A stretch of 64,000 nucleotides of DNA, from positions 24,210 to 88,209 of the forward strand of contig CAZCGQ010000004.1 in assembly GCA_964498425.1 (NCBI GenBank), given 5' to 3'. This document shows positions 2,735 to 56,895 of this stretch, piece after piece. The notes beneath the pieces are model-generated. The model was given only the letters and a program-made list of their open reading frames with translations, was not told the DNA's origin and made no database searches. Position numbers and translations under genes: made by a program. Numbering within the stretch: position 1 is the first letter of the stretch; each line of letters starts with the position of its first letter. This DNA comes from an uncultured Gammaproteobacteria bacterium. GTDB lineage: Bacteria > Patescibacteriota > Microgenomatia > UBA12405 > JAHJSD01.

Positions 2735-3664
2735 TTGGTTGTAAATCAGTCTCCACTTGCTGTCAACTATTTACTGCTTTATACTGAAATAGATATGGAA
2801 CATCACCCAATACCACAGCAAATCAGTTCATATGAATTCCGCCTCGTCGGCAGTATGACTTTGAAGCAATTTATTAAATTGGCTGGTGGTTTAATTATCG
2901 CTTTTTTGTTTTATAACAGCAAACTGATTTTCTTTATTAAATGGCCGATGGTAATCCTCTTTGCCAGCTTAGGAGCGGGATTAGCCTTTATGCCAATTAA
3001 CGAACAACCATTGGAAAAGTGGATTCTTGCCTTTTTCAACAGTATTTACTCTCCATCCATCTATATTTGGCAAAAACAGCCGCAGTTATTAGGGTTTGAA
3101 GAAGGTTTTTATCAACCCCAAGAAGGATCACCCATGCCAGAGGAACCAGCTGAGTCGGAAGATAAGGAACCAAGGCTCGAAGAATTTCTTGCAACTATTG
3201 ATGAAGATAGAAAAGTGAAAAGCCCGCCTGGCGTCGAGGCCGGTGATAAGGAAACTACGCCAGTCGAAGAAGAAGTGAAAGAACCAGAAACGGAACCAAA
3301 ACCAAGAATTGAGCTTGAGCGGCAAAAACCGCTGGAAGCAACAGCTGAAGCCGAATACGGAGAAATTCCGATGCCAAAAACACCTCAAACTCCAAACAAG
3401 GTTGTCGGCATGGTTTTCACTAGAGAGGGTAAAATGGTCGAAAATGCAATTATTGAAATTCAGGATAAAAACGGCAATGCGGTTAGAGCTTTAAGAACCA
3501 ACCGCTTGGGCCAATTTGAAACAGCCACACCTCTATCAAAAGGTGAATACCTAGTAACCGTTGAGAAGGAAGGGTATGACTTTGATATACTGAAAATAGA
3601 AGCTAAAGGTGAAGTTTTAGAACCATTAATTATTAAAACAAAAAACGGGAAGGGTAACGGTTAA
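2735..3664 (+). CDS. PrgI-like T4SS membrane protein with C-terminal carboxypeptidase-regulatory-like beta domain
   Basis: Two TM helices after MEHHPIPQQISSYEF (typical of PrgI-family proteins upstream of VirB4). The C-terminus GMVFTREGKMVENAIIEIQDKNGNAV...GEYLVTVEKEGYDF resembles a CarboxypepD_reg fold. The true start may be the internal Met at 2795. Confidence 0.45.
   Translation: MVVNQSPLAVNYLLLYTEIDMEHHPIPQQISSYEFRLVGSMTLKQFIKLAGGLIIAFLFYNSKLIFFIKWPMVILFASLGAGLAFMPINEQPLEKWILAFFNSIYSPSIYIWQKQPQLLGFEEGFYQPQEGSPMPEEPAESEDKEPRLEEFLATIDEDRKVKSPPGVEAGDKETTPVEEEVKEPETEPKPRIELERQKPLEATAEAEYGEIPMPKTPQTPNKVVGMVFTREGKMVENAIIEIQDKNGNAVRALRTNRLGQFETATPLSKGEYLVTVEKEGYDFDILKIEAKGEVLEPLIIKTKNGKGNG
3211..3246. 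repeat. Miniature GC-rich in-frame insertion element, copy A (inside the PrgI-like gene)
   Basis: aaaagtgaaaagcccgcctggcgtcgaggccggtga encodes KVKSPPGVEAGD. It is near-identical to the reverse complement of 2281-2319. Confidence 0.5.
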
Positions 3665-3754
3665 GACGCCCGTATCGGTAATGTAAAGGGGCAGCGTGAC
3701 CGAAAACGAAAGACGATACGAGTTTCGTAACCTTAACCGATAAACGATATAAGT

Positions 3755-4480
3755 ATGGATTTAAAGGAAATCGCCATTAAAGGAACCAGTCAAGATCATT
3801 TGCCGATTGAGGATATTCAAAACAATTTGGTTATTCTCAAAGACGGAACAACAGTGATGATTGTTAAAACATCATCAGTCAACTTTGATCTACTTTCTGA
3901 AAAAGAACAAGACGCAATGATTTATGCCTACGCCGCTATGCTTAATTCCCTGACCTACCCAATAGAAATTATTGTCAGATCAACCGCCAAGGATGTTTCT
4001 AACTATTTAAAAAGAATAAAAAAGCAGGGTACTAAAATCAGCAACCCCCTGCTGAAAAAACAAATACAATCCTATCACGACTTCGTTGAGGAAGTAGTGG
4101 AAAAAAACAATGTTCTAGCTAAAACATTTTATATTGCTGTTCCCTTTTACCCGGCGGAGATGGGAACAGCGGCGGCCGCCCATTCATCAGTACCCGGATT
4201 TCTGTCATTTCTTAAAAAGGAAAAGAAAACTTTGCCAATGAGTAAAGAAAAAATCGTTGAAAAAGCCAATGCCGCCTTGGAACCAAAGCTGGAACACCTG
4301 ACCCGGCTTTTTGGCCGACTGGGCTTAACCGTAAAGCAATTGGAAACTAAAGAGCTTATCCGCTTATTTTATAAAATTTACAACCCAGAATCGTCTTTGG
4401 GAGAAAATATCGAAGCCTTAAATCAACAAGGTGTAATGATTCATGGACCAAAACAAGATGTTCAACAAAATACTCAATAA
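3755..4480 (+). CDS. VirB4-like ATPase N-terminal domain, encoded as a separate ORF (split from the ATPase core)
   Basis: 241-aa ORF whose last 38 nt overlap the start of the VirB4-like ATPase in another frame. Domain identity is inferred from position. Confidence 0.4.
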   Translation: MDLKEIAIKGTSQDHLPIEDIQNNLVILKDGTTVMIVKTSSVNFDLLSEKEQDAMIYAYAAMLNSLTYPIEIIVRSTAKDVSNYLKRIKKQGTKISNPLLKKQIQSYHDFVEEVVEKNNVLAKTFYIAVPFYPAEMGTAAAAHSSVPGFLSFLKKEKKTLPMSKEKIVEKANAALEPKLEHLTRLFGRLGLTVKQLETKELIRLFYKIYNPESSLGENIEALNQQGVMIHGPKQDVQQNTQ

Positions 4481-6464
4481 AATCAAACCGGGAAAATCAT
4501 CCTCGGCTGAAAACCAGCAAGGCAAGGAACAACAAACCAACCAGAAAAAGCAAAAGCAGCTTGACCCCAAAATTAGGGATTTTGGCGAAGGCCTGGTTTC
4601 TGTTCAAGATATCATTGCCCCATCAGCGATTGAGGTTGATTTCGACTGGATAAGAATCAATAATCATTACTACCGAACCTTGTTTGTCGTCAATTATCCT
4701 CGTTTCGTTTCCGCCAACTGGCTGTCTTCATTGATTAATTTTGATCACTCTTTAGATATATCGATGAACGTTTATCCAACTGAGGGAAAGGAAATCCTCT
4801 CTAACCTGAGAAGAAAAATTGCTGAAATGGAAGCAGAAATTTCTTCAGATGTCCAACGCGGTAAGGTTGTTGATCCTTCTACCAAAGCTAAACTGGAGGA
4901 CGCGCTAAGTTTACAGGAGGAACTGGTAAAGGGAGTTGAAAAATTCTTCCAGTTCGGCCTCTATATTACTATTGGATCAGAGTCAGTTAAGGAGCTTAAC
5001 CAGATTACTAAGGAATTGGAATCAAACCTCGGTTCGTTGTTGATTATTCCTAAACACGCTACTTTACAAATGGAAAATGGTTTCAAAACCACTCTGCCCT
5101 TAGCCAATGACAAATTAAATGTAACCCGTAACATGGATACTACTTCTCTGGCAACTACCTTTCCTTTCGTTTCATCTGATTTGTCAGATGACAAAGGGAT
5201 AATGTACGGGCTGAATGAACACAATGGCTCATTAATTGTTTTTGACCGGTTCAGTATGGAAAACGCTAACTCCATCCTTTTTGCTAAATCCGGTGCTGGT
5301 AAATCCTATCTAGTTAAGCTCGAAGCTCTGCGTTCACTGATGTTCGGCACCGAAGTCATTGTTCTTGACCCTGAAAATGAATACAAAGCTTTAGCGGAAG
5401 CCGCCGGCGGCCAATTTATTACTTTTAGTTTTGAATCTGAATCCAAGATTAACCCCTTTGACCTAGAAATTACCCCGGATGAAGAAAGCAAAAATCAGCT
5501 CGGCCGGAAAATTATGGCTTTGCACAGCCTCTTTGCCCTAATCATGGGAGACATGAATGCTAAAGAAGAAGCTCTACTTGACCGGGCTTTAGTTCAAACT
5601 TACAAAATGCGAGGTATTACTCCAACTAACCCACCTAAACCAGATACGGAAATGCCCTTAGTTGAAGACCTCTATAAAGTGCTTTTAGGAATGGAAGAAG
5701 AACAGGCCGCGTCCCTAGCTGCCAGGTTGGAAAAGTTTATTAAGGGATCATTTTCCGGCTTGTTTAACTCCCAAACTAACGTAGAACTCGATAACGAGTT
5801 CATTGTTTTTGGTATCCGTGACCTGGAGGAAGAACTTCGACCTATTGCCATGCACATTGTTTTGGACTTCATTTGGAATAAAATTCGGAAAGAAATGAAA
5901 AAAAGAATCTTAATTGTCGACGAGGCCTGGTACCTAATGCAATACGCTGACACGGCTCAGTATCTCTACAGTTTAGCCAAACGGGCCAGAAAATACTACT
6001 TGGGCATGACAACAATCACTCAGGATGTTCAAGACTTCCTTGGTTCGGATTACGGTAAGGCCATTGTAACCAACTCCTCCATTCAAATACTCCTTAAACA
6101 GCATCCGGCGGCGATTGATCAAGTTGCCGAAGTGTTTTACCTTTCTGAAGGAGAAAAGCAGTTGCTTTTAGGGGCTGACATCGGTGAAGGTATATTCTTT
6201 GCCGGCCAAAATCACGTTGCTATTAGAGTTATCGCCTCTCCTGATGAACATAAACTAATTACCTCCAGCCCGAAGGATATTTTGGCAATGAAGAAAGGTA
6301 AAGGCCCGGAATCTCAACCCAAATCTACTCAACTAGATGAACAGGCAACAGAGGAACAACCACCCCAACAAAGATTAGAAACCGACCCCCCGCCGCAAGC
6401 TTCGCAGCAGTCAGACGGGGCTCCGCAAGCAGGCGGGCAAGGCACCGGTCGCGAACAGTATTAA
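4443..6464 (+). CDS. virB4: VirB4/TraC/CagE-family type IV secretion ATPase
   Basis: Walker A AKSGAGKS, Walker B ILIVDEAWYLM, and VirB4-like conserved blocks. Low-complexity Q/P-rich C-terminal tail. Confidence 0.7.
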   Translation: MDQNKMFNKILNKIKPGKSSSAENQQGKEQQTNQKKQKQLDPKIRDFGEGLVSVQDIIAPSAIEVDFDWIRINNHYYRTLFVVNYPRFVSANWLSSLINFDHSLDISMNVYPTEGKEILSNLRRKIAEMEAEISSDVQRGKVVDPSTKAKLEDALSLQEELVKGVEKFFQFGLYITIGSESVKELNQITKELESNLGSLLIIPKHATLQMENGFKTTLPLANDKLNVTRNMDTTSLATTFPFVSSDLSDDKGIMYGLNEHNGSLIVFDRFSMENANSILFAKSGAGKSYLVKLEALRSLMFGTEVIVLDPENEYKALAEAAGGQFITFSFESESKINPFDLEITPDEESKNQLGRKIMALHSLFALIMGDMNAKEEALLDRALVQTYKMRGITPTNPPKPDTEMPLVEDLYKVLLGMEEEQAASLAARLEKFIKGSFSGLFNSQTNVELDNEFIVFGIRDLEEELRPIAMHIVLDFIWNKIRKEMKKRILIVDEAWYLMQYADTAQYLYSLAKRARKYYLGMTTITQDVQDFLGSDYGKAIVTNSSIQILLKQHPAAIDQVAEVFYLSEGEKQLLLGADIGEGIFFAGQNHVAIRVIASPDEHKLITSSPKDILAMKKGKGPESQPKSTQLDEQATEEQPPQQRLETDPPPQASQQSDGAPQAGGQGTGREQY

Positions 6465-6505
6465 GTTTGATTTCAAATTCCAATCTGATGTGATAAATTA
6501 TAAGT

Positions 6506-9500
6506 ATGGCTAAGGATGATTCCAAGAAACCTCCACTAAGAATAAAAAAGAGGTCAACGCAAACCTCTGAATCAATCTTAAACGGCAAGGTCAAAACTAA
6601 CGCTTTATCCCAATTTTTTCTAGAAACAATAACTAAATATGAAATAACCGAAAACGACAACTGGCAGGAGGTATTAGATAAAACCGGGTTTAACAAAGCT
6701 GAATTTCAAAGAGTGATCGACTACTTGGGAAACTTATTCGGTTTAATACAAAAGGATAACGAAACCTTTGGTGAATTCTTGGAAAGAGCAGTAAACTATC
6801 TTCATTACCACTACCCTCAAGAAGGTGAGATAATAACCGAGGCGAATGTCCCGGCAAATCTTGAGGAGCTAGTTGCTGACTTTGAAGCTCATCAAAAAGA
6901 GATTGAGGATATTAAGGCAAAAGTCCAGCTTAAAAATCAAGAAGTTGTTGCCCTTTTAGAGAGATTGCAAACAGATATTACCCTTTTCACCGCACAATCT
7001 CCGAAAAATCTCCGCATACCCTTAGATAGAAAGATAAAACTAGCAAAAAATATTGTTATTGACCAAGTAGAAACTGTAGAAAATATAAATCGTTCGGATA
7101 GGATAAATATTCCTCCTGAAGCCACCGCCAAAGTGAGTGCTTTTAGCCTTACTGCTGAGGACCCTACTGAATTTGAAACGGTACTGAAAAGCTTAGGTGT
7201 CAAATCGCCTAAAATTCCGACTATTCTCGACCAACTTGCCGAAAATAAGCTAATTTTGCTCGGCCAAGCTATCGCCGTTGAAGATGTCCGCCAAGAAGCG
7301 GTAGATAAAGGTATCGATAATCAAACAATTGAAGCCAAGGCAAAGGAAATTGTCGTTGAGAAAAAAGAACTGGTTAAAGAGAAAATTGAGGAAGAACTTC
7401 CTCGACTGGATAGACAATCCAAAGCAGAAGTCATCTCTGCCAGCCTAACTGACGATTATCAACAAGTATCAGAGGTACTGGATAAAGCCAATGTTACAGC
7501 TTCAAGAAAGAATAAGATTATTTCTGAAATTAAAGTCAGAAATGCTGATTTGGCAGCCCAAGCAGTTGTCAAGATAGTTGCCGGTGGTTTTCCAGAAGTT
7601 GCTGACGAACAAATTACAGTTGATACCGCCCGATTGCTAGAATTACAAACCGAAAAGGCACAGGAAATAGCTGACCAAGCCGGCTTTAAAATACCAGCCG
7701 CCACGGCCGTTAAAATGGGCGCCCTCACTGTTGGCATTCCAGATTTAACCCAACCAGAAACAGATGCTGCTGCTGGAAAAGTTGATGAGTTTAAAAAATT
7801 GCTTGTTGACCTTGGTGAAAAGCCGCCTAAAATAGATACGATTTTAACTCAGCTCAGCCAAAATAGAAAAACACTTTTTAGTCAGGTTCAGGCTGAAAAA
7901 ACTATCAATCAAAAATTAGTTGAAAACAATCTTTCCATAGGCAGAGCTGAGGATACAGCCATTACCACAATCAAATCAAAAAAAGAGTTGATTGAGGAAA
8001 CAGTCGCCCAATACATTCCAGAGGCTAGTCAAAAAATCAGCGCTGAAATTGTTGCCTCCGCTTTAACTGATAATTTTGAATCTGTCCGCCAAAATCTTGA
8101 TCAAATTCCAAACCTTTCAAATGTTGACAAAACTGCTTTTTTTGAGGAAATTGCAGTAACCAACGAATTTTTGGCTGCCCAGGCAACAGTAGCGGACTTA
8201 ATCAAAAATTTACCAGATGAAATTGCCGCTACTGTTCCAGAAAGCTTTCAAGCTAAACTTAGACAACATCCGGAGGTTGTTAATCACATCGCCGGTCTAA
8301 TTGTTGACCAAACCGCTAAAGGCGCTTCTCAAGAAGAAATCCTTCCCTCAGTTATTATTCCAACAACAATTGCCATCAATAATTCCGGGATGACAATTGA
8401 AAAGGGTGAGGAAGAAGCTCTAAAACAAACGCTAACAAATATTCCCAACCCCACTTTGGAAATGGTTACTCTGGGAGAAGACGAATACTTTCAAACCTCA
8501 ATTCTGGTTGAACTAGAAAGGCAGATCCAAACCTATTTGGGAAGAAATATTCTTATTTCTCAACCTGATGGAAAGGCGAGATACTTAGATTTGGATGATA
8601 AAGTCAATGCTCGGGCAGCCAGAATGATGGCTGAGTTTCTCATCGTAAAGCCTAACGCCACCCAAGAGGAATTTTTAAACCAAAGCGAGGCTAAACTTGG
8701 CCTCCTTCCGGCTGAAAACCCAATTGAAGCCTTAGCCCAATTCAATACAGATCAGGATCCACTAATGGCTGCTGCTGTTGCCGCCAAAATGACTGAAGTT
8801 CCCCCTGACCAGCTTCAAGAACAAATAGTTGCTTGGCGGGATTTTGTTGACCAGCTTAAAGAAATGGGACAAGAGGAAGTAATTTATCAAGATAAACTGC
8901 TGGCAACCTTTGAGTCCTGGTACGGAGAGGAAGGAGTTGCTGAATATGTCTATAGCTCCCAGCTTTATCACGTCTACCACAACGTTAAACAAGTTTTTTC
9001 ACCGGTAATTAACCTTTATCAAAAACATATCCAGCCAAGAGTGAAAAAATTCTTAGCCGAAACAGCTGTGGGAAAAAGCATAAAAGCCGCGTTAGATAAA
9101 GGCAAAGATTATCTTAAAGAAAAAATCATTGAACCAGTTAAAAAATGGGTTTTTGAAAAAATAGCCCAAAAGCTCGCCGAAAAAGGGGTTGAAGTTGCCG
9201 TTAATGAAGGTGTTACTGCAGCAATTGCCGCCATTCTTGGCGTGCCAACTGTAGGTGTATCTGTTGCCCTTTGGCTTCTCTGGGAAGGAATTAAAATTGG
9301 CTATAACGCTCTCAAAACTGGCCTAGAAAAACTCGGCGTTGACCCGGTTACTATTTCCGAAAAAATTAATCGAACCTTTGGTTTTGGCATCGCTCCCCGA
9401 GTGAATAGAATTATTGATAAACTTCTCTTCTTCATCCCAGAAATCTTCCGGGATTTTATCAAATTTGTCTTTAACCTCTGGGAACCGGTTTTTTACGCCG

Positions 9501-10195
9501 GAGTTGGCGGTTTAGTAATTGCTGGAGTAACCATTGCTATTGGCATCCCGATTGTTTTTCAAATAATTCCCCGGGGGCTGGTTAACACAACCTTGGCTCC
9601 GCCTATCGGCCGAGGAGGCCAGGGTGTACCAATGAGCCAACCCGGTTTAGGGAATATTGAAATAGCGGATATTGATAAAGACCAGTGTCTAAATTTAAGC
9701 GGCAGTGCTCAACGCGCCTGTATTGTAACTCTCGTCATTGAAGCCTGCAGTACTACTCAGGGAGCAGTTACCAGCTCCAACGTAAATACAGTCAGAGGTT
9801 GTTTTCAAGAAGCAATGGCTGATGACAGCGATATTAATAGCATATTATCCGGTCATGTTGACCATATCGTTAATGCCTTTACCACCTCGACAGACAGTTA
9901 TCACTATTTACAATGTGTTGGTTATAAAATTGCTGTTGAACCAGCCTTACCCGGCTGTGGAGATGCTAAGCGTTACTATAATAATGGCTGCGGAAACTGT
10001 GATCCTGTTCCCGTTAGCAACGTCCAAATCGGAGACAATGCCGTTTGGACAACTGGGGCTTACGGCCATATTGCTATTGTTATAGATGTTGATGATAACT
10101 ACGTTTATTTATCCCAGGCCTGGGGCGGCTCTGGTACAATTAATTTTACCCGTTTACCAAAAACTGACCCAACTGGCTATATCCGATGTCGATAA
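6506..10195 (+). CDS. Giant T4SS-associated surface/membrane protein with C-terminal CHAP peptidoglycan-hydrolase domain (PrgK/TcpG analogue)
   Basis: 1229 aa. About 900 aa of helical repeats (LGVKSPKIPTILDQL / LGEKPPKIDTILTQL), then TM helices, then a C-terminal CHAP signature YLQCVGY...GAYGHIAIVIDVDDNYVYLSQ (Cys/His catalytic pair). Confidence 0.6.
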   Translation: MAKDDSKKPPLRIKKRSTQTSESILNGKVKTNALSQFFLETITKYEITENDNWQEVLDKTGFNKAEFQRVIDYLGNLFGLIQKDNETFGEFLERAVNYLHYHYPQEGEIITEANVPANLEELVADFEAHQKEIEDIKAKVQLKNQEVVALLERLQTDITLFTAQSPKNLRIPLDRKIKLAKNIVIDQVETVENINRSDRINIPPEATAKVSAFSLTAEDPTEFETVLKSLGVKSPKIPTILDQLAENKLILLGQAIAVEDVRQEAVDKGIDNQTIEAKAKEIVVEKKELVKEKIEEELPRLDRQSKAEVISASLTDDYQQVSEVLDKANVTASRKNKIISEIKVRNADLAAQAVVKIVAGGFPEVADEQITVDTARLLELQTEKAQEIADQAGFKIPAATAVKMGALTVGIPDLTQPETDAAAGKVDEFKKLLVDLGEKPPKIDTILTQLSQNRKTLFSQVQAEKTINQKLVENNLSIGRAEDTAITTIKSKKELIEETVAQYIPEASQKISAEIVASALTDNFESVRQNLDQIPNLSNVDKTAFFEEIAVTNEFLAAQATVADLIKNLPDEIAATVPESFQAKLRQHPEVVNHIAGLIVDQTAKGASQEEILPSVIIPTTIAINNSGMTIEKGEEEALKQTLTNIPNPTLEMVTLGEDEYFQTSILVELERQIQTYLGRNILISQPDGKARYLDLDDKVNARAARMMAEFLIVKPNATQEEFLNQSEAKLGLLPAENPIEALAQFNTDQDPLMAAAVAAKMTEVPPDQLQEQIVAWRDFVDQLKEMGQEEVIYQDKLLATFESWYGEEGVAEYVYSSQLYHVYHNVKQVFSPVINLYQKHIQPRVKKFLAETAVGKSIKAALDKGKDYLKEKIIEPVKKWVFEKIAQKLAEKGVEVAVNEGVTAAIAAILGVPTVGVSVALWLLWEGIKIGYNALKTGLEKLGVDPVTISEKINRTFGFGIAPRVNRIIDKLLFFIPEIFRDFIKFVFNLWEPVFYAGVGGLVIAGVTIAIGIPIVFQIIPRGLVNTTLAPPIGRGGQGVPMSQPGLGNIEIADIDKDQCLNLSGSAQRACIVTLVIEACSTTQGAVTSSNVNTVRGCFQEAMADDSDINSILSGHVDHIVNAFTTSTDSYHYLQCVGYKIAVEPALPGCGDAKRYYNNGCGNCDPVPVSNVQIGDNAVWTTGAYGHIAIVIDVDDNYVYLSQAWGGSGTINFTRLPKTDPTGYIRCR

Positions 10196-10647
10196 TGAAA
10201 AAACTACTTAAGTTTATTAAAAAGTACCGATTAATTATCACCCTGGCTGTAATTGCGGGCGTTCTCTTAGCAGTCAGAATGTTCCTTACTGCCGAAGAAG
10301 AACCTAGCCAATACCCCAAACCAACGCCCCGTCCAACTTCCGAAATACCACTGCCAACCGAAAAGCCAATTTCACCAACGGCGACTCCCGGACAACCAAC
10401 AGAACCTTACGGTAAAGGTGTAACCGAAGAAGAGTTCGTTCAACAAACGCTAAACAAATATCCTCTTCTTCCCTATCTACCTTATGAGCAAGATGAGGAT
10501 ATTGAAATTGCTTACACTCAACCCTTAACCATTAAGGTTAGTAAGCCCGGAGCAATAACCGCCGAAGATAAAAAGGAAGTTTTAATCTGGATTAGAGACA
10601 AAGACGTTAACCCCGATACTCATGAGATTCAATGGCAAGTTGAATAA
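10186..10647 (+). CDS. Small membrane-anchored protein with Pro/Thr-rich linker (paralog 1)
   Basis: N-terminal TM (LIITLAVIAGVLLAV) then PKPTPRPTSEIPLPTEKPISPTATPGQPTEP. Its start overlaps the stop of the upstream gene (ATGA). Confidence 0.5.
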   Translation: MSIMKKLLKFIKKYRLIITLAVIAGVLLAVRMFLTAEEEPSQYPKPTPRPTSEIPLPTEKPISPTATPGQPTEPYGKGVTEEEFVQQTLNKYPLLPYLPYEQDEDIEIAYTQPLTIKVSKPGAITAEDKKEVLIWIRDKDVNPDTHEIQWQVE

Positions 10648-10650
10648 ACT

Positions 10651-10959
10651 ATGGCCAAATTTTTCAAAAAATATTCTCTGGTTTTACTAATTTCAGTCAT
10701 TGCCGGCCTTCTTCTTGGATTCAAAACCCTTGATTCTTCTGATCAACAAAATGTCTTGCCTACTCCTACACCAACTCCAACTACTGGCCCCATTTCAACA
10801 CCATCACCAGTGCCAATACCAACCTTAAACCTCTTGCCAAATCTATCTGATGAGGAAATCGAAGAGTTACGTGATGAAATCGGTATCGACCCCAACGCCT
10901 CCGATGAAGAAAATATTCAAAAAATTCTCGAATGGCTAGAATTAGAAGATAGAAACTAG
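10651..10959 (+). CDS. Small membrane-anchored protein with Pro/Thr-rich linker (paralog 2)
   Basis: Same architecture as 10186-10647: MAKFFKKYSLVLLISVIAGLLLG then PTPTPTPTTGPISTPSPVPIPT. The 3' end runs into an AGAAGATAGAA tandem repeat. Confidence 0.5.
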   Translation: MAKFFKKYSLVLLISVIAGLLLGFKTLDSSDQQNVLPTPTPTPTTGPISTPSPVPIPTLNLLPNLSDEEIEELRDEIGIDPNASDEENIQKILEWLELEDRN

Positions 10960-11041: not shown

Positions 11042-12181
11042 TTACAAATCCACTTTAACCGGCATGATGATGTGCAGCCAGTTTTTATCTGAAGGAATCT
11101 TGAACATTCCCGGAGTTAAGGCTTCATTAAATTCCATTTGAACCTGCTGTTCACTTGAAGGAACAGCCTTGAGAAAGTCAAGCATAAACCGATAGTTAAA
11201 GGCTATTTCTAAATCATCTCCTTCTATTTGTGCTCCAACCTCAGTTTTGTTTTCTCCAACACTGGGGGCATTGGAGGAAATGGCTACTTTACCTTTACCA
11301 ACATTAAATTTAACTACATTGGCTGACTCCCGGGCAAAAACAGATGCCATCCGAACAGACTGATGAAATTCTTCTTTGTCAACTAAAACCTTGGTTGAAG
11401 TTTCCTCGGGAATAATTTTTTGATATTCAGGGAACTCACCTTCAATTAATCGTGAGGTTAATTGTAAATCGGGCAGAACAAAAACCACTTGATTTTCATC
11501 TTCAGTTAAGCCAACTTTCAGTTCGCTTTCTCCAGATGCAAGCCTTACAATTTCTGTTAAACTACGGGCTGGAATTAAGAAATTACCTGAATTTTCTGTT
11601 TTGTCCATATTAACCTCAACACCTGAAACATCACGAAGAGATAATCGGTAACCATCAGTAGATACCATTCGATAACCGTCTTTTGAAAATTCCCAATTAA
11701 CCGCAGCTAAAACTGGTCGAGCGTCATCATCGGCAGCAGCAAAACCAACAAAGTTAACCGCTTCTTCTAAATTAGCTAGAGGTAAAGAGGCTGTTTTCCC
11801 CTGGTCAATTACTGGAATTTCTGGAAATTCTTCCGCATCCATTCCAGCGAATGAACTTTCCCCTTGACTGGAACTGATTTTAACCTGACCTTGTTTTACC
11901 GTTTCCAGTTCTAGCTTTCCGGGAGAAAGATAAGAAACAAATTCCGAAATTTCTTTAGCGGGGACAGTTATCTGGCCGGGCTTTTCTACTTTGGCATCAA
12001 TCCAATACTGAATACCAATATCAAGGTTAGTTGCTGATAACTTAAGCCGGTTATTTTTATCGGCTGAAAAAAGAACATTAGCCAAGACCGGAAGCTGAGG
12101 ACGAGATGCAATAAATCTTGAAACAACCGATAAACTTTGGTTAAGGTCTTCTTGAAGAACTTCTAATTTCATGTTAACCAA
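11042..12181 (-). CDS. dnaN: DNA polymerase III beta subunit (sliding clamp)
   Basis: MKLEVLQEDLNQSLSVVSRFI...LPVLANVLFSADKNNRLKLSATNLDIGI, typical DnaN N-terminus and length (379 aa). Confidence 0.85.
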   Translation of the reverse strand: MVNMKLEVLQEDLNQSLSVVSRFIASRPQLPVLANVLFSADKNNRLKLSATNLDIGIQYWIDAKVEKPGQITVPAKEISEFVSYLSPGKLELETVKQGQVKISSSQGESSFAGMDAEEFPEIPVIDQGKTASLPLANLEEAVNFVGFAAADDDARPVLAAVNWEFSKDGYRMVSTDGYRLSLRDVSGVEVNMDKTENSGNFLIPARSLTEIVRLASGESELKVGLTEDENQVVFVLPDLQLTSRLIEGEFPEYQKIIPEETSTKVLVDKEEFHQSVRMASVFARESANVVKFNVGKGKVAISSNAPSVGENKTEVGAQIEGDDLEIAFNYRFMLDFLKAVPSSEQQVQMEFNEALTPGMFKIPSDKNWLHIIMPVKVDL

Positions 12182-12403: not shown

Positions 12404-13174
12404 ATGTTAAGAGAAATGCAACAATATATTGATAACGTATCTTGCCTGTGGAAAGAGCAACCCGAAGAAGATGTCTTACGGTATTCTGAATACCTTATGA
12501 GTCAGTTTTCTACCAATTCTCAAGTTACGGCATTCATATCAGGAATGATAAGAATGGCAATTGTCAGTGAAGATACTATTTATAAGCAAATAGCTACTGC
12601 ATGTTTTAGATCCGCAAAAAAACAAAACATCTTTCCGTTGGATTTGCTGCCAGTAAAACTCCCGCCCGAGGATGGAGGTAGTTCTCTACAAATATCTATA
12701 GAAAAAGCTTCAGAAGTTTCTAGTAAACAACAGGAGCAAGAAAAAACTGTTGGATTACTACATGGTCATTATAGATTACTGACTCCAGGCAATTTAGCTA
12801 ATATTGCACTAACAAATACTGAATGTGACGTTTTACTGCTCGGCATGGAAAGAGGTAGCAGAACAGCAAAATATAAAGGGGTCGATCCGGTTTATAGTGA
12901 CTGGGAGAGGGCAGTAATGGTTTTAGCTTCTGGACTTTCTGATTATTTAGTTTGGATCTCGAGATTAGATTATTCGAACGACGGCTATCGACGAATGGTT
13001 GAGGATATTTGTCCGAATATTTACTTTGGTAATGCCGGTGATCCGGTCTCGTTGCGAGAAGAAATGCAATTTAGAGCCAACACTATTGGAGCTGAATACC
13101 ATGAGATAAAAAGAATTAAAAGCTTCTCTTCAACAGATTTCAAGGAAGGAAATGTAATTGTACCAGTTCTATAG
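12404..13174 (+). CDS. Hypothetical protein, possible nucleotidyltransferase-like C-terminal half
   Basis: The C-terminal segment LLHGHYRLL...ERAVMVLASGLSDYLVWIS...YFGNAGD loosely resembles the cytidylyl/adenylyltransferase fold. The match is weak. Confidence 0.25.
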   Translation: MLREMQQYIDNVSCLWKEQPEEDVLRYSEYLMSQFSTNSQVTAFISGMIRMAIVSEDTIYKQIATACFRSAKKQNIFPLDLLPVKLPPEDGGSSLQISIEKASEVSSKQQEQEKTVGLLHGHYRLLTPGNLANIALTNTECDVLLLGMERGSRTAKYKGVDPVYSDWERAVMVLASGLSDYLVWISRLDYSNDGYRRMVEDICPNIYFGNAGDPVSLREEMQFRANTIGAEYHEIKRIKSFSSTDFKEGNVIVPVL

Positions 13175-13524
13175 CCTTACACACTTTATCATGGATAAAA
13201 AATATTACCTTAAAGTTTAAGTTTAATAATCATCTTGGGAGATTTTTTCTTTTCCCCATTTTGGATTTAAATGGAGTTAATAGATATTTGAGTATTTAAT
13301 ATAGTAGTAGTATTAGTATAGTCGGTGGAAATGTGAATTATCCTACTTTGGCTGGGCGTAACTAAGCTGTTGAAAAACAGATAAATGAAGCTTTTTCACC
13401 GAAAGAACAAAAAAGACGTAATTATTTATCTGATAATCTTCTACTTGTTATCGACTATAGGAAGTGGAAAAGGCAAAGTTTTTGGGGAGAAAATTGTGGA
13501 TAAATAAAGGGGTTTTGTGGAATA
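13175..13524. other. oriC: Candidate chromosomal replication origin (AT-rich, with DnaA boxes) between dnaA and the dnaN region
   Basis: Perfect DnaA box TGTGGATAA at 13495-13503 and degenerate boxes (CATGGATAA 13191-13199, TTATCCTAC 13337-13345, TTATCTGAT). Strongly AT-rich and directly downstream of dnaA. Confidence 0.35.
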
Positions 13525-14940
13525 CTAAGAATATATTGTCTTTCTCATTTCCAGAATATCGTGACGAATTTCTTGATTGGTGGAAAACAAGCGGTCAACT
13601 TTTTCTTCAGAGTGCATAATCGTTGTATGATCCCGTCCGCCAAGAATTTCCCCAACTCTTTTTAATGGATATTCCAGTTCTTTTCGTAAAAGGTAAGCAG
13701 CTATGTGCCTAGCTGTTGCCACTTCTTTCTTTCGCGATCTCCCTTTAACTTCTTTGGTTTTCAAATCATAATGGTTGGCAACAACAGACAAAATTCTTCG
13801 ATAGGATATTGATTTTCTTTTTTTAGATTGTTTTTTGATCCCAAAAAAGTTTTTCACATAGCCGAGGTTTGGCTGTTGATTATCGGCAGTAGCTGCGGCC
13901 GCAATTTGGGTCAATTTTCCTTCTAATTCTCGGGCATTGGATTCGATTGTTTCAGCAATAAAGGTGATGGCATCTTCGGTGATGTTAATTCCTCGCTGTT
14001 CAGATTTTTGTTTAAGGATTGCTACCCGCATTTCAAAATCCGGTGACTGGACGTCAACTGTCAGCCCGCCCATGAATCGGGAAGTTAGTCTATCCTTAAG
14101 GGGTTGAACTTCTTCCGGTTTACGGTCAGAGGTTAAAATAACTTGTTTCTGGTTAAGGTAGAGGTCGTTAAAAGTGTGGAAAAACTCATCTTGAATGTAT
14201 TCTTTACCGGCGATGAATTGGACATCGTCAACTAGGAAAACGTCGACTTGACGGTATTTGTGCTTAAATTTATTTGTTGTTTGATCTTTCAATGAAGCGA
14301 CGAGTTCATTTCCAAAAGTTTCTGCTGAAATGCACAGAACTTTCCAATCTGGGTTGTCTTGACTGAGTTGATTACCAATAGCGTGGAGAAGATGTGTTTT
14401 ACCAACACCGACCCCGCCCCAAAGAAAAAGAGGGTTATAGGCGGTTCCTGGTTGTTTAACAATTCCTTGGGCGGCAGCAAAGGCGAAGTGATTGGTATCG
14501 CCGACAACAAAGTTGCTAAAGTTGAATCGTGGACTAAGCCCAGAGCGTCTATTAAAAGAGTTGTTTGGGGCTAGTGGCTGGCCGTTAGCAGATGCAGAAA
14601 CATTGTGTTTCGAGCCTTGCCTCGTCGAAGCCTTTGGCGAAGGCGGGTTTTCTTGAAAAAGCGGCCCCGTCTCACCCTTTTTCTCCTTTGGCTTTTCCAC
14701 CTCGAAAATTAAAGTGGATTGTTCACCAGTTTGTCTATCTAGGGCGGATTGAACTAGACTGGCATAGCGTTTTTTTATCAGGTCTGCCAGGTAAGAGTTA
14801 GGGCAAACAATTGTTGCTTTTTTGTTTTTGTAGTTTTTAAGCTCGGTGTTAGAAAAAAGAGTAGTAAATATTGTTTTAGACAAAGAAAGTTTAAGTTCGG
14901 CTAAAACACTAGACCAAAGTGAATCTAAATTTTGTTTCAC
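13525..14940 (-). CDS. dnaA: Chromosomal replication initiator protein DnaA
   Basis: AAA+ Walker A GVGKTHLLHAIGN and C-terminal DnaA signature helix ...HTTIMHSEEKV. 471 aa. Confidence 0.9.
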   Translation of the reverse strand: MKQNLDSLWSSVLAELKLSLSKTIFTTLFSNTELKNYKNKKATIVCPNSYLADLIKKRYASLVQSALDRQTGEQSTLIFEVEKPKEKKGETGPLFQENPPSPKASTRQGSKHNVSASANGQPLAPNNSFNRRSGLSPRFNFSNFVVGDTNHFAFAAAQGIVKQPGTAYNPLFLWGGVGVGKTHLLHAIGNQLSQDNPDWKVLCISAETFGNELVASLKDQTTNKFKHKYRQVDVFLVDDVQFIAGKEYIQDEFFHTFNDLYLNQKQVILTSDRKPEEVQPLKDRLTSRFMGGLTVDVQSPDFEMRVAILKQKSEQRGINITEDAITFIAETIESNARELEGKLTQIAAAATADNQQPNLGYVKNFFGIKKQSKKRKSISYRRILSVVANHYDLKTKEVKGRSRKKEVATARHIAAYLLRKELEYPLKRVGEILGGRDHTTIMHSEEKVDRLFSTNQEIRHDILEMRKTIYS

Positions 14941-22463: not shown

Positions 22464-23073
22464 TTGCACTTTAACAAGTTATTGATGACGTAATATACCG
22501 TGCATCACATGTGTGTCTTTGACACACGTATTTCTCATGTGCTTTTTGCACATGAAATTAACCGTGTACCCTTTGTGGTACGCGGCCGGAACCCGCCTTT
22601 ATGGCGGGACACAATAATTCTAGTATTAAGGCAAAAGGTGGATACCTAGGTGGCAAGAGCCGAAGAAGGACGTGGTAGGCAGCGAAATATGTCGGGAAGG
22701 TGCCAAACAACCTTTGATCCGGCAGTGTCCGAATGGGGTAACCCACTCCTGTGTAAGCAGGAGGACTCCAACTTTAGTTGGAGAGGTAAGCTGGGGAACT
22801 GAAACATCTTATTACCCAGAGGAAAATAAAATTTCAATGATTCCCTTAGTAGCGGTGAGCGAAAAGGGATTAGCCCAAAGGTCGATTCGTCGACCGGTTG
22901 CAGGGTCCAGCCAAAAAATAATTCTAGCTAGCGGAAAACTTCGGAATAAGTTTCCAGAGAGGGTGAAAGGCCCGTACGCGAAAGCGCGAATTATTTAGGC
23001 GGATTCCTAAGTAGCTCCGACATAATCGGGGTGAATCAGGGGGAACCACTCCTCCAAGGCTAAATACTCTTGC

Positions 23074-23120
<47 letters not shown>

Positions 23121-24599
23121 GGGAGGGGAGTGAAATAGTATCTTGAAACCATTTGCTAACAAACAGAGAGAGTTCCGACCTTGTGTCGAGAATGATCTCG
23201 TGCTTTTTGGAGAACGAGCCGGCGAGTTTTCGTTGACTGCAGGTTTAACCGAGTCTGACTCGGGTAAGCGGAGGGAAACCAAGTTTGAATAGAGCGATAA
23301 GCAGTTAGCGTAAGACCCGAAACCGAGTGATCTAACCATGGGCAGGGTGATCTCTGACGAAAGTCAGGGGGAAGGCCGAACCAGTAGGGGATGCAAACCC
23401 TTTGGATGACCTGTGGTTCGTAGCAATATGCTAATCGTACTCGGAGATAGCTGGCTCTCCCCGAAATATATTTAGGTATAGCGTTCTATTGTCTCTTTCA
23501 GGGGTAAAGCCACTGGATGGGCGCAGGGTAGAAATACCTTGTGCTCAACCAAACTCTGAATACTGGAAGATTAAGTAGAACAAGTCGGTCTGATCGGGCT
23601 AAGCTGATCAGGCGAAAGGGAAAGAACCCAGACTCCCGTATAAGGTCCCTAAGTGTTTGCTAAGTGGCAAAGGAAGTGATTCGCCACAGACAGCCAGGAG
23701 GTTGGCCTAGAAGCAGCCATCCTTTAAAGAAAGCGTAACAGCTCACTGGTCGATGGCGAGTCGCGCCTAAAATTTAACGGGGCTAAGCAAACCACCGAAG
23801 ACGGAGTTCTGTACCATTTGGTGCAGGAGGTAGGGGAGCGTTCCCAGGGCGGTGAAGTCAAATCGTAAGGTTTGGTGGAGCGCTGGGAAGTGAGAATGCC
23901 GGCATAAGTAACTAGAATTCTGGTGAGAATCCGGAACGCCGAAAGCCTAAGGTTTCCAACGCAATGTTCGTCAGCGTTGGGTTAGGCGGGGCCTAACCCG
24001 AGTCCGTCAATTGACGGAGTAGGGGATGGACAGTCAGTTAATATTCTGACCCCACGGCTGTTTCGTTTTACTTAGGGAGTGACGCATTAGGATAAATCGG
24101 GTGGAGTAGTGAAATTGCTCCATTGATCAACCGAGTTAGTTTCAGCAGGCAAATCCGTTGAAATGTTTAAGGCAAGGTTGAACAGAACCCTGACCTTCGG
24201 GTCGTGGGAACTTGATCGATTTCTGATGCCGAGAAAAGCTTCGTAAGGAGAAACAGTTGTGCCCGTACCGCACAACCGACACAGGTAGGCAGGTCGAGTA
24301 GACCAAGGCGCGCGGGAAAAGGGAGGTTAAGGAACTCGGCAAAAAAGCTAGGCGTAACTTTGGGAGATGCCTTCCCTCGAGTTTTCGAGGGCACAGCTAA
24401 CGAGTGTTCGGCGACTGTTTACCAAAAACACAGGTCTCTGCAAACCCGTAAGGGGAAGTATAGGGGCTGAAGCCTGTCCAGTGCCGGAAGGTTAAGGGGA
24501 GTTGTTCGGTCGATTTTTCGACCGGGCGGCGAACTGAAGCCCCGGTGAACGACGGCGGTAACTCTAACCGTCCGAAGGTAGCGAAGTCCATTGTCGGGT

Positions 24600-25304
24600 A
24601 AGTTGGAACGAGCCCGTATTGGCTAATAACGGAAAAGCCCTAATTTAGGTTCAATGGCAACCGTTTTAGGATTAGGGTAATTGCGTGGGAAGTCCCGCAT
24701 CTGCGGGACCCCGTAACGACTTTTTTCGATTTTAATCGAAAAGGATAGATTTTGTGCCTATTTCAAGCTATGCTTAAGTTAGGCAAATCATGAAATCTAT
24801 AACACGCCAGTCACTGCTACAACAGGAATTGAATCCCAATTGGATTACTGGCTTAGTTGATGGTGAAGGATCATTTATGGTTCTTTTTAATCCAAATTCT
24901 AAGTTTAATACCAACTGGGAAGTCCGACCGAGTTTTGCTCTCTCCTTGAAAAAAGCGGATAAAAGTATTCTTTTAAGTTTAAAAGAATATTTTAAGTGTG
25001 GAAGTGTGCGTTTTTGTAAAACTGACTCTACTTACAAGTATGAGGTTAGAAGTTTACAAGATTTGCACTCTAGAGTAATACCACATTTTGATAAATATCC
25101 CCTTTTAATAAAGAGGAAAGAGTTCTTGGTTTTTAGGAAAGTTGTTTTTCTGATGAAGGCTAAAAAGCATTTAATGCCAGATGGTCTGAAAGAAATCTCA
25201 AGATTAGTTGGTTCAATTAATCGCGGGAGGGATAAGAAAAACTTTCCATCGTTGTAATTGGTGAAAGAGATAGTCTGCACCATTGGTAACAATGGAGGTT
25301 TGTG
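24600..25304 (+). mobile_element. Group I intron in 23S rRNA domain IV (insertion site equivalent to about E. coli position 1951) carrying a LAGLIDADG homing-endonuclease ORF
   Basis: Exon junction GUCGGGU|AAGUUCCGACC is restored when 24600-25304 is removed. The 5' exon ends in U and the intron ends in G (group I rule). Its 705-nt length accounts for the oversized 23S. The position was counted from the A2058 region by hand. Confidence 0.6.
24790..25257 (+). CDS. LAGLIDADG-family homing endonuclease (intron-encoded)
   Basis: NWITGLVDGEGSF motif at the N-terminus. 155 aa. Located entirely inside the 23S rRNA intron. Confidence 0.75.
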   Translation: MKSITRQSLLQQELNPNWITGLVDGEGSFMVLFNPNSKFNTNWEVRPSFALSLKKADKSILLSLKEYFKCGSVRFCKTDSTYKYEVRSLQDLHSRVIPHFDKYPLLIKRKEFLVFRKVVFLMKAKKHLMPDGLKEISRLVGSINRGRDKKNFPSL

Positions 25305-26383
25305 AAGTTCCGACCGGTATGAACGGCTTAACGACCGAACAACTGTCTACGACCTCTCACCCGGTGAAATTGAAATACCGGTAAAGATGCCGGTTAGTGA
25401 CGGCAGGACAGAAAGACCCCGTGGAGCTTAACTGAGGCTTAACGTTGGGAAAAATACTTTAATTGTTGAGAATAGGTGGGAGCCTTCGGGCGCCAGTGAA
25501 ATACCACTCTTTGAGGTATTGGACTCTAACCAATGTTCACTGCAAACGTGAACTGGGACGGCGTTTGGTTGTCAGTTTGACTGGGGCAGTCGTCTGCTAA
25601 AAAGTAACGCGGACGTACAAAGGTTGGCTTGGTCCGGCTAGAAATCGGACTGTAAGTATAAAGGCAAAAGCCAGCTTAACTGCGAGACCGACGGGTCGAG
25701 CTTGCAAAGCCACAAATATTTTGTTTGTGGGGATGCAACCGTGTACCTTTGGTACATGGAGGTGCGAAAGCAGGTCTTAATGATCTTCCGTCCCTTGTGG
25801 ATAGGGGCGGGACTTAACGGATAAAAGCTACCCCGGGGATAACAGCGTGGTCGGGCCCGATAGTCCATATTGACGGCTCGGATCGCGACCTCGATGTCGA
25901 CTTGGCGCATCCTGGCCCTGAAGAGGGGGCCAAGGGTTGGTCTGTTCGCCCATTAAAGCGCTGCGTTAGTTGGGTTCAGAACGTCGTAAGACAGTTCGGT
26001 CCATATCCGCCGTCACCGCACGATTTTTGAGAGGAGCTCACTACAGTACGAGAGGACCTAGTGGGAGGAACCTCTGGTGTGCCTGTTGTTCTGTCAAGAG
26101 CATTGCAGGGTAGCCATGTTCCTTCGGGATAACCGCTGAAAGCATCTCAAGCGGGAAGCCCACCTCAAGATAAGAAATCGATGACCGATTTATCGGTCTG
26201 AAGGCCTCCAGGAGACTACTGGTTATAGGTAGGAGGTGGAAGACCAGCAATGGTTTAAGCTGACCTATTCTTATTGGCCGACCTAGAATTTATTTTACAT
26301 CCGGTGCCACGTACCATTCGGTGCATGGCTAGCGTGATGCACTGTATACTATGTCATCAATACTTGTTGAGAGACAAGAAAAT

Positions 26384-41250: not shown

Positions 41251-42612
41251 ATGGGGAAAAAGGACTTACCGAATCCGCCGAGGTTGGGAGAAATCATTGG
41301 ACCGTCATTTATTTTGCTTGGCTTGGCTTTGGGCAGCGGTGAGCTGATTTTATGGCCTTTTTTGGCCGCTAAACATGGTCTGGGGCTGATTTGGGGAGCT
41401 TTATTAGGAATTACCCTTCAATTTTTTTTAAACACAGAAATTATCCGTTACTCCCTCGTTTGGGGGGAAAGTGTATTTGTTGGTTTTAAGCGGTTATGGA
41501 AATGGTGGCCGGTTTGGTTTATTGCCTCGACCTTTATCCCCTGGGGTTTGCCCGGTTTTTCTTCGGCCTCGGCCCAGATAATATCAAAGATATTTGGTTT
41601 CAGCCAAACTAAATGGCTAGGGATCGGGTTGTTGATTTTAACCGGTGTGATTCTCAGCGTCGGCAAAGTTTTGTATCAGACGATGGAATATCTCCAACGG
41701 ACGATAATATTGGTCGGTCTACCATTAATTTTAATCTTAGTAGTTTTGCTGACTGGCAAACAGGATTGGGTGGATTTAGCTCAAGGCTTAGTTGGCAGAG
41801 GCAACGGCTTCTGGTTTTTTCCAGCTGGAATTGGTTTAGGGTCATTTCTAGGTGCCTTTGCTTACTCTGGTGCTGGCGGCAATTTGAACTTGTCCCAATC
41901 TTATAACGTTAAAGAAAAGGGTCTAGGAATGGGTAAATATGCTGACAAAATTGTCTCGCCGTGGCGTAAAAAAGTAACCAAATCTCGACTTGAGGGCCAG
42001 TCATTTAGTCTAACTCCTTTGAATTTAAACAAATTTAAAAAGTGGTGGAGATTGGTTTGCCGTGAGCATTTAATTGTTTTTTGGGGGCTTGGCTTTGTTT
42101 CAATTGTTCTTTTGTCAGTTCTGGCAAAAAGTCTTGTTTTCGGCCAGGTCGATGCCCAAGGAATAAACTTTATCTATCAGGAGGCGGCGGCCATACGCCA
42201 AATTTTGTCTCCAACGGTTGGGGTTATTTTTCTGATTGTTTCTGCTTTAATGCTTTATGCCACTCAGCTTGGGGTTTTAGAATCATCATCTCGAATTATT
42301 TCCGAGAACTTTATTTTATTTAATTGGGAAGAGGGGGAAAAGGCTAATCCGTCAAAGTGGTTTTACTTTGCTCTCTGGGGTCAAATTGGAGTTGGAATCA
42401 TTACCCTTTTGCTTGGAGTTAGTGAACCAAGGTTTTTGTTAACTTTGTCTGCTATACTCAACGCTTTGGCAATGACTGTTTTATTTCCGTTGATTTGGGT
42501 TTTGAACAAAAAGAGGTTAAAAAAAGAACTTCAGCCAAGCTTGTTGCGACAAGCAGTAATTATTTTAGGCTTTATTTTCTTCGCCGTTTTTTCCGGAGTT
42601 ACTTTACTCTAA
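41251..42612 (+). CDS. Polytopic membrane protein, possible transporter
   Basis: About 11-12 predicted TM helices. N-terminal GPSFILLGLALGSGELILWP is vaguely NRAMP/APC-like but lacks the DPGN motif. Confidence 0.35.
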   Translation: MGKKDLPNPPRLGEIIGPSFILLGLALGSGELILWPFLAAKHGLGLIWGALLGITLQFFLNTEIIRYSLVWGESVFVGFKRLWKWWPVWFIASTFIPWGLPGFSSASAQIISKIFGFSQTKWLGIGLLILTGVILSVGKVLYQTMEYLQRTIILVGLPLILILVVLLTGKQDWVDLAQGLVGRGNGFWFFPAGIGLGSFLGAFAYSGAGGNLNLSQSYNVKEKGLGMGKYADKIVSPWRKKVTKSRLEGQSFSLTPLNLNKFKKWWRLVCREHLIVFWGLGFVSIVLLSVLAKSLVFGQVDAQGINFIYQEAAAIRQILSPTVGVIFLIVSALMLYATQLGVLESSSRIISENFILFNWEEGEKANPSKWFYFALWGQIGVGIITLLLGVSEPRFLLTLSAILNALAMTVLFPLIWVLNKKRLKKELQPSLLRQAVIILGFIFFAVFSGVTLL

Positions 42613-54375: not shown

Positions 54376-54678
54376 TTACCCGGCAACGCTTATTCCAAAC
54401 AAAAGTTCGGCAATTTGGAGAATAAAAAAGGCGCTGAGAATAATAATGAAACCGACCAAAGCATAGGTGATGCGATTGGTTCCTCTTTTGATTCCTTCGG
54501 GATTACCGCCGGAAGTGAGTAGGTCAAACCCGCCAGCAATTAGAAAACCAAGGAGGGCAATGCCGGCAATGACAATGGCATAATTGAGGGCTTCAGTTAC
54601 TATTTGACCAAGAGTAGAAGAACCAAATTTGAAATTTGCAGGATAATTAGGTAAATTTACTTGGGCGTAAGCTTTCAT
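54376..54678 (-). CDS. Small two-TM membrane protein, VirB2/TrbC-pilin-like (paralog A)
   Basis: 100 aa. Two hydrophobic helices separated by a TSGGNPEGIKRG loop. Confidence 0.35.
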   Translation of the reverse strand: MKAYAQVNLPNYPANFKFGSSTLGQIVTEALNYAIVIAGIALLGFLIAGGFDLLTSGGNPEGIKRGTNRITYALVGFIIILSAFFILQIAELLFGISVAG

Positions 54679-56886: not shown

Positions 56887-56895
56887 CGCATAACA

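Follow-up and report, generated by a model that had tools for sequence, protein, structure and literature searches.

We analysed a 64,000-nucleotide (nt) stretch of contig CAZCGQ010000004.1 (the window) and focused on six open reading frames (ORFs) that occupy positions 2735-10959 of its + strand. This cluster is very probably an operon that holds the vertically inherited core of a Patescibacteria-type type IV secretion system (T4SS), derived from monoderm conjugation machinery, fixed at the replication origin in Candidatus Shapirobacteria, and presumably serving a non-conjugative, epibiotic role. The genes encode a PrgI-like membrane protein, a TrsD-type protein, the ATPase VirB4, a 1,229-amino-acid (aa) protein with a C-terminal hydrolase domain (the giant protein), and two small membrane-anchored proteins. 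They are tightly packed, with intergenic spacings of 90, −38 (or −23), 41, −10, and 3 nt. The initial annotation of this stretch had listed this gene content next to dnaN and dnaA, and the ORF map bore out all six ORFs with their coordinates. It had also proposed a housekeeping or episymbiont role at the origin; this was largely supported but is not novel, as the T4SS core, its origin proximity, and the idea of an epibiont interaction have already been published (PMC12102498, PMC10633639). The part that appears to be new, and that we did not find in the searchable literature, is a giant hydrolase-bearing protein encoded downstream of virB4 in Shapirobacteria, with an exchangeable catalytic cassette.

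We compared the window proteins by tblastn with 68 related loci (67 from species genomes and one from a JGI metagenome contig), many of them on truncated contigs. The related loci belong to Candidatus Shapirobacteria, class Microgenomatia. Most contigs that reach the flanks have the same fixed order, which is exo53 (− strand), PrgI, TrsD, VirB4, a variable stretch of 3 to 6 kb, dnaN (−), dnaA (−), rnpA, and yidC. Across the 68 loci, the PrgI and TrsD genes were adjacent in 59, exo53 lay upstream in 48, and dnaN was found on the − strand within 7 kb downstream in 39. In the window, the 5'-3' exonuclease gene exo53 (1740-2678, − strand) forms the other flank of the operon and diverges from the PrgI-like gene, while dnaN (11042-12181, − strand) is convergent with the operon and dnaA (13525-14940, − strand) lies beyond it. 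The cumulative GC skew reaches its minimum at ∼12.0 to 12.3 kb, with dnaN and dnaA adjacent, which puts the operon immediately next to the origin of replication. No integrase or relaxase was detected among the scanned ORFs of the 64-kb window, and no att-like repeats flank the cluster, with direct repeats remaining at chance level (≤21 nt). The cluster has a GC content of 0.41, the same as its surroundings. A comparison of synteny in related genomes had been suggested at the outset, together with the view that the cluster is not a conjugative element; the order conserved across the 68 loci and the lack of integrase, relaxase, and att repeats in the window agree with that view.

The first gene (2735-3664, + strand) encodes a VirB3/PrgI-like membrane protein of 309 aa with a Pfam PrgI match above the cutoff (6.1e-7; 30.3 bits against 27). 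Two adjacent hydrophobic segments form a hairpin at aa 49-89 and are followed by an acidic, proline-rich linker, and the C terminus weakly matches an Ig-like, CarboxypepD_reg-like domain (2.8e-6, below the Pfam cutoff). The third gene (4443-6464, + strand) encodes a VirB4 ATPase of 673 aa, which matches the NCBIfam model of CD1110-family VirB4 (2.2e-119; 399.9 bits against a cutoff of 325) as well as Pfam P-loop_TraG (5.2e-34), and its Walker A (GAGKS) and Walker B (LIVDE) motifs are intact in the translation. CD1110, the best curated model, is of the FATA type, and the close relatives of this VirB4 are all from Shapirobacteria or Patescibacteria. The match covers model positions 171 to 733, so that the first ∼170 positions are missing.

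The second gene (3755-4480, + strand) supplies the complementary part of full-length VirB4 models. Its 241-aa product stands alone and is homologous to the domain at VirB4's extreme N terminus, matching positions 103 to 232 of 894 of NCBIfam VirB4_plasma (8.7e-11, far below the curated cutoff) and, again below threshold, NCBIfam TrsD/TraD (1.7e-10; 41 bits against a cutoff of 200). The Pfam family PF26593 (TraC-like) is precomputed for a gene identical to 3755-4480 and for all of its listed homologues. An AlphaFold2 (AF2) model built from 55 homologues had a mean predicted local distance difference test score (pLDDT) of 76, and its ten best fold matches in the PDB were all R388 TrwK/VirB4 chains (probability, 0.91 to 1.00; ∼200 aligned columns). 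The two ORFs overlap by 38 nt in different frames (23 nt with the gene-caller start at 4458), and the initial annotation, which spoke of a split VirB4, had left it to a check of the overlap at 4443-4480 whether this was a sequencing frameshift. The split is genuine and old, because 832 database homologues exist (the 120 matches listed are 226 to 293 aa long and all stand-alone), because the two ORFs are separate in each of the 65 related loci where both occur, with the TrsD-type ORF ending in its own stop at or before the VirB4 start, and because the predicted fold matches R388 VirB4. A frameshift at the junction is thus ruled out by the stand-alone homologues and the recurrence in related loci. 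The separate ORF is therefore real, although it is the known TrsD component (PMC12102498) and not a peculiarity of this genome.

Further T4SS parts are dispersed over the window. A homologue of the VirD4-like type IV coupling protein (T4CP) is encoded at 47972-50098 on the − strand, 37 kb from the core (Pfam TrwB_AAD_bind, 6.2e-8, and TraG-D_C, 9.9e-7, both above cutoffs); the earlier statement that VirD4 is missing thus applies to the immediate neighbourhood but not to the window. Two tandem VirB2-like pilins of 100 and 104 aa, each with two hydrophobic helices, are encoded at 54376-54992 on the − strand, 44 kb from the core (Pfam T4SS_pilin PF18895, 1.9e-9 and 1.4e-6, above the cutoff). The absence of an adjacent relaxase, also noted at first, extends to all scanned window ORFs. 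Likewise, neither the cluster nor the other scanned ORFs of the window gave a match to VirB6, PrgH, or TrbL, in line with the initial remark that no VirB6-like channel is adjacent.

This layout is close to what has been described for Patescibacteria. Quinonero-Coronel et al. (2025) reported monoderm-type T4SSs without relaxases near dnaA, dnaN, and rnpA in Patescibacteria, Microgenomatia included (PMC12102498). In their survey, the Patescibacteria VirB4 proteins form a monophyletic clade related to MPF-FATA, and the stand-alone homologue of the VirB4 N terminus, named TrsD, is the most abundant T4SS component in Patescibacteria and is, outside them, confined to monoderm systems of the pGO1 subclass (PMC12102498). 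The systems comprise PrgI/VirB3, arrays of VirB2-like pilins, and T4CPs encoded away from virB4, while relaxases are nearly absent, and a gene-dosage hypothesis was offered for the proximity to the origin (PMC12102498). Our cluster has in common with this clade a VirB4 of the monoderm (MPF-FATA-like) type, a TrsD that stands alone, a PrgI/VirB3-like protein, and the origin position, as well as the lack of a nearby relaxase, the T4CP far from virB4, and the tandem VirB2-like pilins. The dispersal of the window system, with T4CP and pilins 37 to 44 kb off, also follows the published description. In the Saccharibacterium Southlakia epibionticum, a T4SS (SEML1_0006-0019) is indispensable to epibiotic growth (Wang et al., 2023; PMC10633639), and there the pilins lie inside the cluster, whereas ours are 44 kb away. 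Work on Patescibacteria T4SSs has been reviewed (PMC12857230). The cluster is, by that measure, an ordinary further instance of a system described from 2023 to 2025.

The Shapirobacteria loci do, however, differ from the published survey. In Microgenomatia, the survey found VirB6 to be scarce and VirB3 to be associated with VirB4 for only 22.6% of homologues, and outside Paceibacteria VirB1 homologues were not associated with VirB4 (PMC12102498). A VirB1-type hydrolase, and usually VirB3 too, could therefore not be linked to virB4 of Microgenomatia, whereas nearly every Shapirobacteria locus has both: the PrgI-like gene adjoins that of TrsD in the 59 loci mentioned above, and the hydrolase-bearing giant directly follows virB4.

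The giant protein (6506-10195, + strand) starts 41 nt past the virB4 stop. Its N-terminal ∼890 aa (6506-9175) are all-helical in the AF2 model, free of cysteine, and fast-evolving. They are followed by a hydrophobic block (9176-9583), a membrane anchor by hydropathy, in which an amphipathic stretch separates two segments at aa ∼895-929 and ∼993-1026, and by a Cys-rich C-terminal region (9584-10195), probably an ectodomain, which ends in the CHAP domain with Cys1137, His1188, and Gln1204. The AF2 model of aa 30-1229 had a mean pLDDT of 67; the first ∼1,000 residues were almost entirely helical, and the C-terminal alpha/beta domain was confident (pLDDT, ∼88 to 95). The N-terminal region had been described as ∼900 aa of helical repeats, of which the helices stand but the repeats do not: there is no array, only a single internal duplication of ∼175 aa (aa 216-390 versus 422-596), and the orthologue in related locus L003 has one copy of this segment. 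The N-terminal ∼890 aa matched nothing in Pfam, NCBIfam, PHROG, PDB, or BFVD, and fold searches with the giant against PDB and BFVD matched the CHAP domain and nothing else, including no T4SS component fold. The protein has no N-terminal signal peptide.

All nine cysteines of the giant lie at aa 1061-1228, within the C-terminal 203 aa. Cysteine makes up 4.4% of this tail, compared to 0% of VirB4, DnaN, Rho, and FtsH, and other Cys-rich proteins of the window are predicted to be exported. Because the tail is Cys-rich like the predicted exported proteins, and many cytoplasmic proteins have no cysteine, we infer that it is extracytoplasmic and disulfide-bonded. We also considered the Cys depletion of the N terminus as a clue to its localisation and discarded it as uninformative, since many cytoplasmic proteins here are without cysteine.

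The CHAP assignment rests on sequence, alignment, and predicted fold. The Pfam CHAP match of the full-length giant was just above the cutoff (7.1e-6; 26.9 bits against 26) and rose to 29.5 bits for the C-terminal 330 aa alone. In an alignment of 15 sequences (the giant and 14 homologues from an exhaustive database search), Cys1137 (in LQCVG) and His1188 (in GHIAIV) were at least 90% conserved, the one exception being a homologue whose match apparently stops before the CHAP domain, and Gln1204 (in AQAWGG) was invariant. Aligned with the CHAP domains of PcsB and endolysins, the Cys and His coincide with the catalytic residues there; a loss of catalytic residues, raised at first as a possible objection to the assignment, was thus not seen for this pair. 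In Foldseek searches, the C-terminal domain matched the CHAP endolysin PlyGRCS (8xyf/8h1i) and viral CHAP endolysins with a probability of 1.00, and MepS and PlyC were also matched. The domain therefore resembles CHAP hydrolases such as PcsB (4cgk), PlyGRCS (8h1i/8xyf), and PlyC in its papain-like fold, in which the Cys belongs to a QC motif and the His to a GH motif. It differs from them in its marginal sequence similarity (E, ∼1e-3), in the Gln or Ser at the third position, and in its setting within a Cys-rich ectodomain with eight further cysteines.

The giant also invites comparison with the hydrolases of Firmicutes conjugation systems. The operon order of a VirB3-like protein, TrsD, VirB4 (TrsE), and a membrane-anchored CHAP hydrolase (TrsG/TraG/PrgK) is that of pGO1/pSK41 (TrsC-TrsD-TrsE-TrsG) and of pIP501/pCF10. 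The initial annotation's likening of the giant to PrgK/TcpG holds for the CHAP domain and the operon position but goes no further, given that no SLT or lysozyme domain was found in the giant by Pfam, NCBIfam, PHROG, or fold search and that its N-terminal 890 aa are unmatched. As a membrane-anchored CHAP protein encoded in a T4SS operon, the giant is VirB1-like in its peptidase part, while the glycosidase of such enzymes is lacking. Moreover, unlike the Firmicutes systems, the window cluster is chromosomally fixed with no relaxase or oriT found in the window, and its hydrolase carries ∼890 aa of orphan helical sequence ahead of the anchor and has a catalytic domain for which five families are interchangeable. 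The window also has VirB2-like pilins, whereas the Gram-positive systems do without them.

Across the related loci, no other gene of the locus evolves nearly as fast as that of the giant. The L003 orthologue is 43% identical to it, compared with 93% for VirB4, 81% for TrsD, and 74% for exo53. An exhaustive HMMER search of 1.84 billion representatives returned only 36 relatives, and a word-indexed database search yielded only the giant itself and one relative at 60%. Of the related loci, 41 reach dnaN, and 38 of these have a large ORF (647 to 1,303 aa) in the variable stretch, in every case directly after virB4. All 38 share one design, with an N-terminal part of 330 to 980 aa that has no hydrophobic segments and zero or one Cys, a central hydrophobic block, and a C-terminal tail of ∼100 to 450 aa that is Cys-rich in nearly all. 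The hydrophobic block is the most conserved part of the giant, with 90% identity to the orthologue in the closest relative, L002. One to four small ORFs follow the large one, most of them with a single hydrophobic anchor.

The catalytic domain itself varies. Pfam searches of 38 C termini (the window copy and 37 related loci) identified Peptidase_M23 in 12, Peptidase_C39_2 in 7, NlpC/P60 in 6, CHAP in 4, and VanY in 2, so that 31 of the 38 positional orthologues, the window copy included, have a recognisable hydrolase domain; local profile iteration raised the CHAP count to 9. In an unbootstrapped neighbour-joining tree of VirB4, the hydrolase type switches several times between sister loci. 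For instance, the C39-like giant of L017 and the M23 giant of L053 are 45% identical over aa 61-932, and their alignment ends just before the catalytic domain, whereas L053 and L025, both with M23, align from end to end. These alignments show that the terminal hydrolase is a cassette that is exchanged between species on a homologous chassis.

The two small proteins that follow complete the operon. The first, p153 (10186-10647, + strand; 153 aa), has an N-terminal anchor, a Pro/Thr linker, and a conserved C-terminal domain of 62 aa, and the second (10651-10959, + strand; 102 aa) has one N-terminal anchor and a Pro/Thr-rich linker. The anchors and linkers noted at first are thus confirmed, but the supposed paralogy of the pair is weak, as the 31% identity found by tblastn falls mostly in the anchor and linker. 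The C-terminal 46 aa of the 102-aa protein are confined to the closest relatives. The p153 domain, by comparison, is found in 35 of the 38 loci with a large downstream ORF, whatever the hydrolase type, and p153 is therefore a conserved component of the locus. We had considered p153 as a cognate immunity protein, and its occurrence with every hydrolase type ruled this out. A profile search of PDB sequences with the p153 family gave only anchor-driven noise and no relative. In L002, an extra 122-aa gene of the 23S_rRNA_IVP/bAvd family (6727-7095) lies between the small anchored proteins and dnaN; it is absent from the window. In L009 (2571-2831) and L014 (943-1143), a gene resembling that of p153 is found upstream of the PrgI-like gene and not after the giant gene, and neither locus adjoins dnaN, which indicates that the cluster is occasionally rearranged.

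Taken as a T4SS core with a VirB1-like wall-cutter that serves a host-dependent lifestyle, the cluster would work as follows. TrsD and VirB4 would assemble on the PrgI-like anchor as an inner-membrane motor. The giant would sit in the membrane with its helical N terminus inside and its putatively disulfide-rich hydrolase outside, where the hydrolase would cut peptide bonds of peptidoglycan and allow a channel or VirB2-type pilus to cross the cell wall. The wall that is cut could be the cell's own, as with VirB1-type enzymes, or that of a host. By analogy with what has been inferred for Saccharibacteria, the machine would serve the epibiotic lifestyle, through transfer of protein or other substrates or through attachment, and not conjugation. 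It is important to note that several points weigh against this model. The epibiotic role is extrapolated from Saccharibacteria to Microgenomatia, and the relaxase negative covers a 64-kb window of the genome only. The third catalytic position of the CHAP domain is non-canonical (Gln1204 or Ser1203, depending on the alignment, where Glu, Asn, or Asp is usual), and the giant is a predicted hydrolase. With its two clear hydrophobic segments, both termini would lie on one side of the membrane; a third span is needed for an N-in/C-out protein, and the pLDDT of the membrane region in the AF2 model is below 50. Finally, neither a VirB6-like polytopic channel nor a VirB8-like protein was recognised in the cluster.

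This last point raises the question of whether the giant is itself the missing channel scaffold, a substitute for VirB6, VirB8, or VirB10 whose cytoplasmic helical domain docks VirB4/TrsD and whose hydrolase is a fused accessory. The lack of VirB6 and VirB8 homologues, the invariable position of the gene after virB4 in the 38 loci that reach dnaN and have a large ORF, the strong conservation of the hydrophobic block, and the conserved bitopic partner in the p153 family would all fit such a role. However, the giant has two to three hydrophobic segments compared with at least five in VirB6, it matched no fold of any T4SS component, and its helical region diverges too fast for conserved docking. 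We regard a scaffold function as possible but doubtful.

Phage tape-measure proteins such as T5 Pb2 have a long helical region, hydrophobic segments, and a C-terminal peptidoglycan hydrolase. The giant has the same layout, and it could accordingly be a host-directed weapon or conduit: its helical part would be extruded by the T4SS in the manner of a tape measure, its hydrophobic block would enter the host membrane, and its hydrolase would breach the host peptidoglycan, with the hydrolase family tracking the chemistry of the host wall. The rapid divergence of the giant relative to VirB4 in L003, the swapping of the cassette between sister loci, and the missing N-terminal signal peptide point in this direction. 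A PHROG scan for similarity to tape measures, though, gave strong matches only through the hydrolase domains and otherwise a single marginal one (L047 to phrog_58; E, 2.9e-4), so that no sequence or fold similarity to these proteins is detectable beyond the hydrolases, and the genomic context of the giant is a T4SS and not a tail module. Furthermore, no secretion signal was identified in the giant, the swaps could also be explained by changes in the chemistry of the cell's own wall or by functional redundancy, and monoderm VirB1-type hydrolases also combine CHAP, NlpC/P60, and M23 (PMC12102498). We therefore consider a weapon or conduit unlikely. Much the same holds for the broader proposal that the giant is a modular host-range determinant and not a classical VirB1, in which a chassis of helical region, membrane block, and Cys-rich stalk carries an exchangeable cassette matched to host wall chemistry, perhaps as a T4SS-extruded, tape-measure-like conduit; we put it forward as a speculative idea with the odds against it. 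If the cassette does track the wall type of the host, it would be a sequence-readable clue to the host range of uncultivated Patescibacteria and would mark the stage where T4SS and host envelope come together.

That the cluster is a decayed integrative and conjugative element (ICE) that landed beside the origin, with a frameshift or assembly error behind the separate VirB4 N-terminal ORF, is very improbable: the curated models closest to it describe conjugation proteins from ICEs of Firmicutes and Mollicutes, and a horizontal origin of the T4SS from monoderms has been proposed (PMC12102498), but the flanks and gene order shared by dozens of species-level genomes, the stand-alone TrsD-type ORF in 65 of 65 loci and 832 database proteins, the intact Walker motifs, the matching GC content, and the lack of any integrase, relaxase, or att-like repeat longer than 21 nt in the window contradict it for the recent past, with the placement between exo53 and dnaN being fixed.

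Elsewhere in the window, a polytopic membrane protein of 453 aa (41251-42612), with ∼8 hydrophobic segments and no family match, is encoded next to radA (42943-44286) and is a possible candidate for the missing VirB6-like channel. The pilin pair is flanked by two more cell-wall enzymes, one an M23 peptidase with two LysM domains (53265-54374) and the other a SpoIID-domain protein with a PcsB-like coiled coil (56878-58617). Between these enzymes lies a 635-aa protein with no assignment (54956-56863).

The operon occupies the strand of negative GC skew, left of the skew minimum at ∼12.2 kb, so that its transcription runs towards the origin and meets replication head-on. The convergent arrangement of operon and dnaN is kept in the related loci. 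A scan of the operon for promoters and terminators gave counts near the expectation from shuffled sequence. Between dnaN and dnaA, inside the region where the GC skew switches, lies a 256-aa ORF without a Pfam match (12404-13174). The spacing of dnaN and dnaA in L002 is only ∼320 nt, so that this ORF seems to have been inserted into the probable oriC region. At 13495-13503 there is a perfect DnaA box.

At the other flank, a 40-nt inverted repeat with 90% complementarity links exo53 (2277-2316) and the PrgI-like gene (3211-3250). Read in the sense of its own gene, each arm encodes a near-identical peptide of 13 aa, the exonuclease having KVKSPPAVEAGEK and the PrgI linker KVKSPPGVEAGDK; the repeat has the appearance of a small duplication or of gene conversion between the neighbours.

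The wider window is typical for Candidate Phyla Radiation (CPR) bacteria, with tmRNA, rnpA, yidC, khpB, smpB, recF, EF-P, rho, ftsH, and an intron-bearing 23S rRNA. The 23S rRNA gene (22616-26292) is 3,677 nt long compared with 2,925 nt for the model, and a LAGLIDADG homing-endonuclease ORF lies inside it (24790-25257; Pfam, 4.7e-22). The interruption is an rRNA intron, of a type often seen in CPR bacteria.

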